Shown here piece by piece: positions 1 through 486 of a stretch of 486 bases of DNA. Source of the stretch: Escherichia coli (GTDB taxonomy: Bacteria > Pseudomonadota > Gammaproteobacteria > Enterobacterales > Enterobacteriaceae); the NCBI RefSeq assembly GCF_003334785.1, contig NZ_QOWV01000086.1. The stretch is one strand, 5' to 3'. The notes under the pieces are model-generated. The model was given only the letters and a program-made list of their open reading frames with translations, was not told the origin of the DNA and did no database searches. A program made the translations under genes and the position numbers. The stretch's first letter is position 1. Each line of letters starts with the position of its first letter.

Positions 1-167
1 CTGCGTAATACAGCCCGTCTGCCGTCTGGTTTTTCAGGACGGTTTTTCCAGTATCTGTAGCTGCTGCGATGAACCCCGAACACATGGCAGAGTGTGACCA
101 CAGGATAATGCGCTCTGAGTTTCCTGATTATCGAGAACTGTTCAGGGAGTCTGACATCAAGAGCGCG
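1..167 (-). pseudogene. insO: IS3-family (IS911-like) transposase OrfB, N-proximal fragment; 5' side interrupted by IS30, 3' side continues beyond window position 1
   Basis: Reverse-complement translation from 167 down to 3 gives 55 codons with no stop: [56 protein letters not shown]. This matches, from memory, the region of IS911 OrfB just downstream of the OrfA/OrfB frameshift site. No start codon or RBS for this frame is present before the IS30 boundary, consistent with disruption. The symbol insO is the E. coli K-12 name for the IS911 orfB fragment and is assigned from recollection. Confidence 0.7.
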
Positions 168-169
168 GT
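1..169 (-). mobile_element. Fragment of an IS3-family insertion sequence (IS911-like), truncated at position 169/170 by an IS30 insertion
   Basis: The minus strand translates without stops into a sequence with the N-proximal signature of IS3-family OrfB transposases. The sequence stops abruptly where the IS30 terminal repeat begins at 170. No IS911 terminal repeat is visible in the window, so this is an internal fragment. Confidence 0.75.
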
Positions 170-195
170 TGTAGATTCAATTGGTCAACGCAACA
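170..195 (+). repeat. IS30 left terminal inverted repeat (IRL), 26 bp
   Basis: TGTAGATTCAATTGGTCAACGCAACA lies directly upstream of the transposase gene. The matching right repeat is outside the window and cannot be checked here. Confidence 0.85.
172..177 (+). promoter_or_regulatory. -10-like hexamer TAGATT inside the IS30 IRL
   Basis: TAGATT matches TATAAT at 4 of 6 positions. In IS30 biology the IRL is known to supply a -10 element that combines with a -35 (TTGACC) from an abutting right repeat in (IS30)2 junctions. Here the upstream partner would be flanking DNA. The hexamer is seen directly; its function is inferred. Confidence 0.35.
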
Positions 196-218
196 GTTAT
201 GTGAAAACATGGGGTTGC

Positions 219-223
219 GGAGG
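219..223 (+). promoter_or_regulatory. Shine-Dalgarno sequence for the IS30 transposase
   Basis: GGAGG sits 8 nt upstream of the ATG at 232 (GGAGGTTTTTTGAATG), which is ideal composition and spacing. Confidence 0.85.
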
Positions 224-231
224 TTTTTTGA

Positions 232-486
232 ATGAGACGAACATTTACAGCAGAGGAAAAAGCCTCTGTTTTTGAACTATGGAAGAACGGAACAGGCTTC
301 AGTGAAATAGCGAATATCCTGGGTTCAAAACCCGGAACGATCTTCACTATGTTAAGGGATACTGGCGGCATAAAACCCCATGAGCATAAGCGGGCTGTAG
401 CTCACCTGACACTGTCTGAGCGCGAGGAGATACGAGCTGGTTTGTCAGCCAAAATGAGCATTCGTGCGATAGCTACTGCGCTGAAT
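232..486 (+). CDS. insI: IS30 transposase (DDE transposase, IS30 family), N-terminal 85 codons; 3' partial
   Basis: Frame 1 is open from the ATG at 232 to the window end: MRRTFTAEEKASVFELWKNGTGFSEIANILGSKPGTIFTMLRDTGGIKPHEHKRAVAHLTLSEREEIRAGLSAKMSIRAIATALN. I recognise this as the N-terminus of the E. coli IS30 transposase, which carries the helix-turn-helix DNA-binding region that recognises the IS30 ends. A strong RBS precedes it and it lies immediately inside the IRL. It is missing from the supplied ORF track because no stop codon falls in the window. Confidence 0.95.
   Translation, partial: MRRTFTAEEKASVFELWKNGTGFSEIANILGSKPGTIFTMLRDTGGIKPHEHKRAVAHLTLSEREEIRAGLSAKMSIRAIATALN

Follow-up and report, generated by a model that had tools for sequence, protein, structure and literature searches.

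The window analysed here, a stretch of 486 nucleotides from Escherichia coli (contig NZ_QOWV01000086.1), covers the junction at which the left end of an IS30 copy abuts an IS911-like element of the IS3 family. Positions 1-169 of the window plus strand are the antisense of the 3' end of an IS911-like orfA and the 5' region of orfB, i.e. of the region that follows shortly after the A6G -1 frameshift site when IS911 is read in its sense direction. The reverse complement of this stretch, ACCGCGCTCTTGATGTCAGACTCCCTGAACAG..., continues ...GAAATATTAAAAAAGGCTAC from the far side of IS30, and joining the two flanks at the locus gives ...ATATTAAAAAAGGCTACCGCGCTCTTGATGTCAGACTCC..., which restores the continuity of orfA and orfB together with the A6G heptamer; on the sense strand of the host element the restored sequence reads ...GAAATATTAAAAAAGGCTACCGCGCTCTTGATGTCAGACTCC.... 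We take this sequence to be the orfA/orfB frameshift region of IS911, in agreement with the annotation of IS911A and IS911B in K-12. The IS30 element is intact, with a length of 1221 bp (L001 4170-5390; L001 denotes the wider locus), a GT duplication, terminal inverted repeats and an ORF of 383 aa, and it differs from IS30A of K-12 by 3 nt. Its first base is window position 170, the left end reading TGTAGATTCAATTGG... and the right end, at the locus, ...GCATTGACAGATTGAATCTACA; the inverted repeats are presumably 26 bp long. The features to which we refer below are the following.

1-169, minus strand: IS911-like (IS3-family) fragment, annotated as 'IS3 family transposase', frameshifted, partial
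151-156, plus strand: -35-like hexamer CTGACA, 5/6 match to TTGACA; reverse complement of the IS911 coding sequence TGTCAG
157-171, plus strand: 15-bp spacer TCAAGAGCGCGGTTG; 13 bp of flank DNA up to the junction, with the target duplication of 2 bp included, then IS30 nt 1-2
168-169, no strand: GT, left copy of the IS30 2-bp target-site duplication; GT borders IS30 on both sides
170-195, plus strand: IS30 left inverted repeat (IRL), TGTAGATTCAATTGGTCAACGCAACA; the terminal 12 nt equal the inverted right end
172-177, plus strand: -10-like hexamer TAGATT, 4/6 match to TATAAT; by sequence geometry the -10 half of the junction promoter Pjunc
181-187, plus strand: native -35, either TTGGTC (181-186, 18-bp spacer) or TGGTCA (182-187, 17-bp spacer), by weight matrix; inside the IRL
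182-187, plus strand: zone in which a TAGATT-driven start would be predicted, 4-9 nt past the hexamer
205-210, plus strand: native -10 AAACAT, part of the small palindrome ATGTGAAAACAT; the mapped start follows 7 nt downstream
217, plus strand: native IS30 transcription start, a G at IS30 nt 48, transferred from K-12 IS30A
219-223, plus strand: Shine-Dalgarno sequence GGAGG of the IS30 transposase gene, read from the sequence, 8 nt before the ATG at 232
232-486, plus strand: first 85 codons of the IS30 transposase (ORF-A; 383 aa, WP_001254876.1), which runs past the window

Some further observations concern this stretch. At window position 386 (IS30 nt 217), a G217A change relative to IS30A, IS30C and IS30D of K-12 leads to R52H in the N-terminal DNA-binding region of the transposase, the ORF being otherwise intact (383 aa). 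The IS911 flank harbors a perfect 7-bp inverted repeat, GCGCTCT...AGAGCGC (window 111-117 and 160-166), which in the sense direction of IS911 comes shortly after the A6G site and probably belongs to the known frameshift-stimulating structure. RefSeq annotates a partial 'hypothetical protein' pseudogene of 81 nt on the plus strand (window 155-235, L001 4155-4235), which spans the IS911/IS30 junction, ends at a TGA overlapping the transposase ATG and recurs in every genome inspected; it looks like an annotation artefact. An Rfam search of the window returned nothing meaningful (best match E = 0.88).

The initial annotation had proposed that CTGACA in the flank and TAGATT in the IRL form a fortuitous, probably weak promoter that could drive transposase transcription into IS30 from outside the element. 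Both hexamers and the 15-bp spacer were reproduced exactly by a script check, and annotation and locus reading agree that IS911-like DNA abuts the IRL at this point. The pair lies in the context ...GGGAGT CTGACA TCAAGAGCGCGGTTG TAGATT CAATTGG..., where TAGATT keeps A2 and T6 of TATAAT. Thus, a -35-like hexamer and a -10-like hexamer with both key bases are present, but the spacer departs from the 17 ± 1 bp of sigma-70 promoters and, at 15 bp, lies at the lower edge of the natural range. A TGn extended -10 is absent (positions 169-171 are TTG), and the DNA upstream of CTGACA is not A/T-rich. The arrangement also has the geometry of an IS-flank fusion promoter, the IS terminus providing one hexamer and the flank the other, although at the extreme of workable spacing.

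If the pair were a real weak sigma-70 promoter, with CTGACA and TAGATT acting across 15 bp and a start at about 183-186, a transposase mRNA with a longer leader and the same 5' end as Pjunc transcripts would be added to the native output. We consider this unlikely, even though several properties of the pair speak in its favor: five of six positions of the -35 match, the -10 hexamer is functional in the strong Pjunc, and 15 bp is still within the range of natural spacers. Consensus hexamers give high expression with spacers of 15-19 bp (Klein et al. 2021), i.e. a 15-bp spacer is tolerated when the hexamers are consensus.

The connection to Pjunc follows from the ends of the element. The right inverted repeat (IRR) ends ...TTGACAGATTGAATCTACA, so that an IRR-IRL joint would contain TTGACA, 13 bp of IRR, a 2-bp spacer and 2 bp of IRL (17 bp in total), followed by TAGATT; we reconstructed this TTGACA-17-TAGATT arrangement from IRR, 2 bp and IRL, a 2-bp spacer being typical of IS30 junctions. 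PMC9333248, which cites Dalrymple 1987, describes a strong Pjunc that arises at the IRL-IRR joint and drives ORF-A, and the review PMC9330008 likewise covers Pjunc in (IS30)2 dimers and minicircles. TAGATT is placed exactly where the -10 of the promoter described in PMC9333248 would have to be, as the initial annotation had it, and by this geometry, to which an alternative is hard to see, it would be the -10 of Pjunc. The hybrid shares with Pjunc this -10 (IS30 nt 3-8), the would-be 5' end and leader and the direction into the transposase gene. In contrast to Pjunc, its -35 is a 5/6 hexamer from the IS911 flank instead of the 6/6 TTGACA of the IRR, its spacer measures 15 instead of 17 bp, and the DNA to the left of the IRL is IS911-like, with no IRR abutting the IRL. 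Without an IR-IR joint, the hybrid is not the transient promoter that is coupled to transposition.

Two other kinds of promoter invite comparison. Like the IS-flank fusion promoters reviewed in PMC9330008, the hybrid combines one hexamer from an IS terminus with another from neighbouring DNA, joined by the insertion. The documented cases are mostly directed outward, with the -35 in the IS end and the -10 in the flank, and have been shown to activate a neighbouring gene, whereas the hybrid points inward, matches at chance level and is known from sequence alone. The host element has a Pjunc of its own that follows the same split logic, with -35 and -10 in opposite ends, and that exceeds the resident promoter about 40-fold in strength (Ton-Hoang et al. 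1997, cited in PMC9330008 and PMC9333248). The IS911 Pjunc belongs to the host element and not to IS30. The IS911 DNA in the window is internal coding sequence and not an IS911 end.

To judge the match we scored sites with a rough sigma-70 weight matrix (maximum 18.3 bits). The hybrid CTGACA-15-TAGATT reached 8.12 bits, compared with 15.4 bits for the junction promoter, and was the second-best scoring site on the window plus strand, a point in favor of a weak promoter. A sigma-70 scan restricted to spacers of 16-18 bp returned no site in the window against 0.6 expected. Since a scan of contigs for the IS30 IRL gave only one locus (Pantoea), we used analytic and simulated nulls together with the K-12 copies instead. 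With the -10 of the IRL fixed, a -35 with at least 5/6 matches at a spacer of 15-19 bp is expected in 2.3% of flanks by the analytic null and in 2.5% when the flanks are taken from real DNA. For real E. coli DNA, 16.6% of flanks are expected to reach a composite score of at least 8.12 bits. The left flanks of other IS30 copies scored 8.7 bits (K-12 IS30A), 7.1 bits (Pantoea), 4.7 bits (IS30D) and 1.1 bits (IS30C). From this we conclude that the hybrid match is at chance level.

The meaning of such a score was calibrated by comparing the matrix with the plus-strand Cappable-seq list over 48.5 kb of MG1655. On one strand of this region, 76 sites scored at least 8.12 bits, which is about one per 640 bp per strand, and nine of them (12%) had a start 4-9 nt past the hexamer, compared with a baseline of 0.8%; in the bin of 8-10 bits the fraction was 4/63. 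Sites of equal score thus do have a start in 6-12% of cases, which leaves some room for a weak promoter at the junction, but none of the 13 sites whose best spacer was 15 bp and which scored at least 6 bits had a start, which argues against it. Real starts in the same region had a median of only 4.5 bits, and score and strength were practically unrelated (rho 0.07), so that the matrix is a weak instrument in both directions. Indeed, the native IS30 promoter (4.5-4.8 bits) scores below the hybrid. An internal control is provided by TTCAAA (324-329) and TATGTT (348-353), which are separated by 18 bp and score 8.2 bits; the predicted start at about 360-361 corresponds to IS30 nt 192, i.e. U00096.2 269956, which is a called Cappable-seq start in K-12 with about 5% of the native start (score 1.8 vs 32.8). 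Two further weak internal starts are present in K-12 at the equivalents of window 271 (269866, score 5.6) and window 316 (269911, score 2.0).

The matrix also listed two other pairs that could have been created by the junction, TTGTAG (169-174) with AACAGT (192-197) at 17 bp, where the first hexamer uses the flank base T169, and CTGACA with TTCAAT (176-181) at 19 bp. That one of these is the actual promoter seems to us scarcely credible: at 6.2 and 4.5 bits both score below the proposed pair and have poor -10 hexamers, and no K-12 start is called at IS30 nt 1-47, although the flanks in K-12 have a different base at the equivalent of position 169.

The promoter of IS30 itself is located further inside the element. 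According to PMC9783932, which cites Dalrymple et al. 1984, the native -35 lies in the left IR and the -10 in an internal symmetrical sequence, as do TTGGTC/TGGTCA and AAACAT in the window. In MG1655, Cappable-seq places a start at U00096.2 269812 with a read score of 32.8, and the independent dRNA-seq set of BW25113 lists the same position (FWD_(III)-269812). The start of IS30A at U00096.2 269765 was obtained from insI-1 at 269827-270978 and a verified offset of 776 to the current version; therefore, 269812 is IS30 nt 48 and corresponds to window 217, 7 nt past AAACAT. The start list of Kim 2012 contains no entry inside IS30, and SMRT-Cappable-seq none in the K-12 IS30A region. By analogy with K-12, the transposase mRNA of the window copy would most likely start at IS30 nt 48 as well. 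In comparison with the hybrid, this promoter has the same element end, direction and gene, but is contained entirely within IS30 (181-210) and has two K-12 data sets behind its start, whereas the hybrid has none. An N-terminal transposase fragment footprints the inner IRs, overlapping the native promoter and leaving the outer tips unprotected (PMC3299598). The hybrid itself overlaps the native -35, which lies 4 bp further in, so that the two would compete for RNA polymerase; this overlap at 181-187 is a further point against a productive hybrid.

K-12 does not contain the window junction: IS30A occupies the same IS911 site in the opposite orientation, and the left end of IS30D abuts a fragment of IS600. 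IS30A nevertheless serves as a natural control. Since IS30A is inverted, its right end abuts the same IS911 flank, and since the terminal 12 nt of both IS30 ends are identical, the K-12 minus strand carries CTGACA-TCAAGAGCGCGGTTG-TAGATT-CAAT; over the stretch that begins with the -35 and extends 4 nt beyond the -10, the right-end junction of IS30A thus equals the window. A two-strand dRNA-seq list of low sensitivity (about 1,000-2,000 sites) contains no reverse-strand start in 262303-274374, including the predicted position of about 270971. The list being shallow, this absence at an identical core is suggestive but not decisive evidence against a weak promoter. The left flank of IS30A provides a second hybrid, ATGAAA-18-TAGATT, which scores slightly above that of the window (8.7 bits), and no plus-strand Cappable-seq start was called between 269507 and 269812, including IS30 nt 13-18 of IS30A, in a list with a read-score threshold of 1.5 and unfiltered repeat reads that covers the plus strand up to about 1 Mb. 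Reads that start inside IS30 map to three copies, which dilutes a copy-specific signal about 3-fold, and the upper bound on the output of this left hybrid is about <14% of one native promoter. A start at 183-186 of the window would likewise fall within IS30 and could not be traced to one copy in strains with several copies; in ATCC 11775 and S88, with one matching place per record, IS30 at this junction appears to be single-copy. That a better-scoring hybrid shows no start above threshold likewise argues against activity of the pair in the window.

Two features of the K-12 loci are worth recording here. At U00096.2 271014, 29 nt beyond the right end of IS30A (L003 3763-3800), Kim 2012 lists a weak plus-strand start with 5 reads; it reads outward into the IS911 remnant, may be linked to the TTGACA of the IRR and is irrelevant to the orientation found in the window. 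At the IS30D locus (L002 4681-5060, minus strand), IS600 is inserted in IS911 at about window 50/51, window 51-169 is missing, and the left end of IS30D abuts the IS600 frameshift region. This locus looks like a deletion derivative of the window arrangement, consistent with recombination between two IS30 copies, and this arrangement leaves K-12 without the window junction.

A start at about 183 would also change the leader. For such a transcript, folding predicts a stable 5' hairpin (-27 kcal/mol, z = -3.9) and a largely unpaired Shine-Dalgarno sequence, a point in favor of a weak promoter; the predicted structure (window 186-270) comprises a CGCAAC/GUUGCG hairpin enclosing AUGU/ACAU and a hairpin CAGCAGAGG...CCUCUGUU in codons 7-13. 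For a transcript starting at about 216, the Shine-Dalgarno region GGAGGUUUUU is predicted to pair with AAAAAGCCUCU of codons 9-13 (-15.2 kcal/mol, z = -2.6), a fold that may dampen translation of the native mRNA. We also considered that the long leader blocks the ribosome-binding site, comparable to the protection of IS10 and IS50 from outside transcription, and rejected this because the Shine-Dalgarno sequence is mostly free in the fold and because Pjunc transcripts, which have the same leader, reportedly give high transposase levels (PMC9333248).

The junction is widespread. By megablast, the whole window was found at a coverage of at least 80% in 778 of the 5426 complete E. coli genomes, and a junction-specific query of 121 bp (window 110-230) in 1017 of them. 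In ATCC 11775, the type strain, fecCDE is located upstream of the locus and a tRNA-Leu gene is nearby, and the junction as a whole is part of the fec (ferric citrate) island beside tRNA-Leu (L001 1-2365, 7733-7817). That about 14-19% of complete genomes contain the junction is probably due to inheritance of this island and not to properties of the junction. If the hybrid were active in vivo, it would constitutively raise transposase levels in a flank-dependent manner and turn this copy into a 'master' source of IS30 activity, which would then act in the lineages with the junction, about 800-1000 of the 5426 complete genomes; we regard this as quite improbable.

The position next to the fec genes raises the question of read-through, i.e. 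of transcription that enters IS30 from upstream promoters such as that of the co-directional fecABCDE operon, which ends about 1.8 kb upstream. The genes fecC, fecD and fecE lie on the strand of the IS30 transposase (fecE ends at L001 2365), the same co-orientation is found in K-12, and the terminator-like sites in between are only weak. However, there are six of them against 2.0 expected, four on the plus strand, and two genes on the opposite strand intervene. Moreover, the fec operon is derepressed only when iron is limiting and citrate is present. Taken together, we consider a contribution of read-through to be very unlikely.

Comparison of host elements shows that the -35-like hexamer tracks the element in which IS30 resides: CTGACA is present in IS911 and ISEc52 hosts, and CGGACA replaces it in a much more divergent ISEc31 host with IS30 at the same site. 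As CTGACA is coding sequence of the host element and is not conserved in ISEc31, there is no sign of a maintained -35; we therefore rejected the idea that the hexamer is kept as a promoter element, and its variation counts against a functional weak promoter.

In several contexts, IS30 is found 4-6 nt past the A-rich heptamer at which IS3-family elements undergo -1 frameshifting. These include IS911 in both orientations (the window copy and K-12 IS30A), IS600 (K-12 IS30D, ...TTAAAAAAAGCAAC|IRL) and ISEc31, and the corresponding sites are window 168-170, L001 5391-5415, L003 2520-2545, L002 4681-4700 (minus strand) and L009. Other left flanks contain an A-run 6-12 nt from the IS30 end (Pantoea, ...AAAAAACATGAT|; IS30C, ...AATAAAGGTACT|). 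Judged from these flanks, the frameshift signal looks like it coincides with a target hot spot of IS30.

The explanation that we favor, at a probability of about 0.8, is that the hexamer pair is a by-product of IS30 landing at this site, that the hybrid is silent or negligible, and that the transposase mRNA arises from the internal promoter with its start at 217. The left end of IS30 carries TAGATT (nt 3-8), by geometry one half of a split promoter, which becomes strong only once a minicircle or tandem dimer brings the left end together with the right end and its perfect TTGACA 13 bp from the tip. In an integrated IS30, the -10 of the left end faces whatever DNA lies outside; here this is antisense IS911 coding sequence, which by chance offers CTGACA 15 bp upstream. 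Little or no transcription is expected from this pair because the spacer falls 2 bp short, neither hexamer is perfect, and an extended -10 and A/T-rich upstream DNA are missing. What counts against silence is that most 8-bit sites pair their hexamers less well than this one, which joins a 5/6 -35 to a proven -10. Overall, the hybrid is probably silent or negligible at the window junction. The terms 'fortuitous' and 'probably weak' of the initial annotation were well chosen, but its suggestion that the motif drives transposase transcription to a meaningful extent is not borne out: the match is at chance level, sites of equal score rarely have a start, none is listed at the identical K-12 core in the two-strand dRNA-seq list, the slightly better left hybrid of the differently flanked IS30A copy has no Cappable-seq start, and the real start is at IS30 nt 48.

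The elements involved are known, as are the logic of split promoters and the concept of IS-flank fusion promoters; the specific hybrid is undocumented. Its significance is small; if it were active, it would be one more flank-dependent IS promoter and a possible reason for differences in IS30 activity from copy to copy in the many E. coli lineages that inherit the junction. The case also advises caution, since sigma-70 matches of 8 bits are met about once per 640 bp on each strand, and about nine in ten of them have no detectable start. With the split-promoter design of IS30, the -10 of the left end would often meet a passable -35 by accident.
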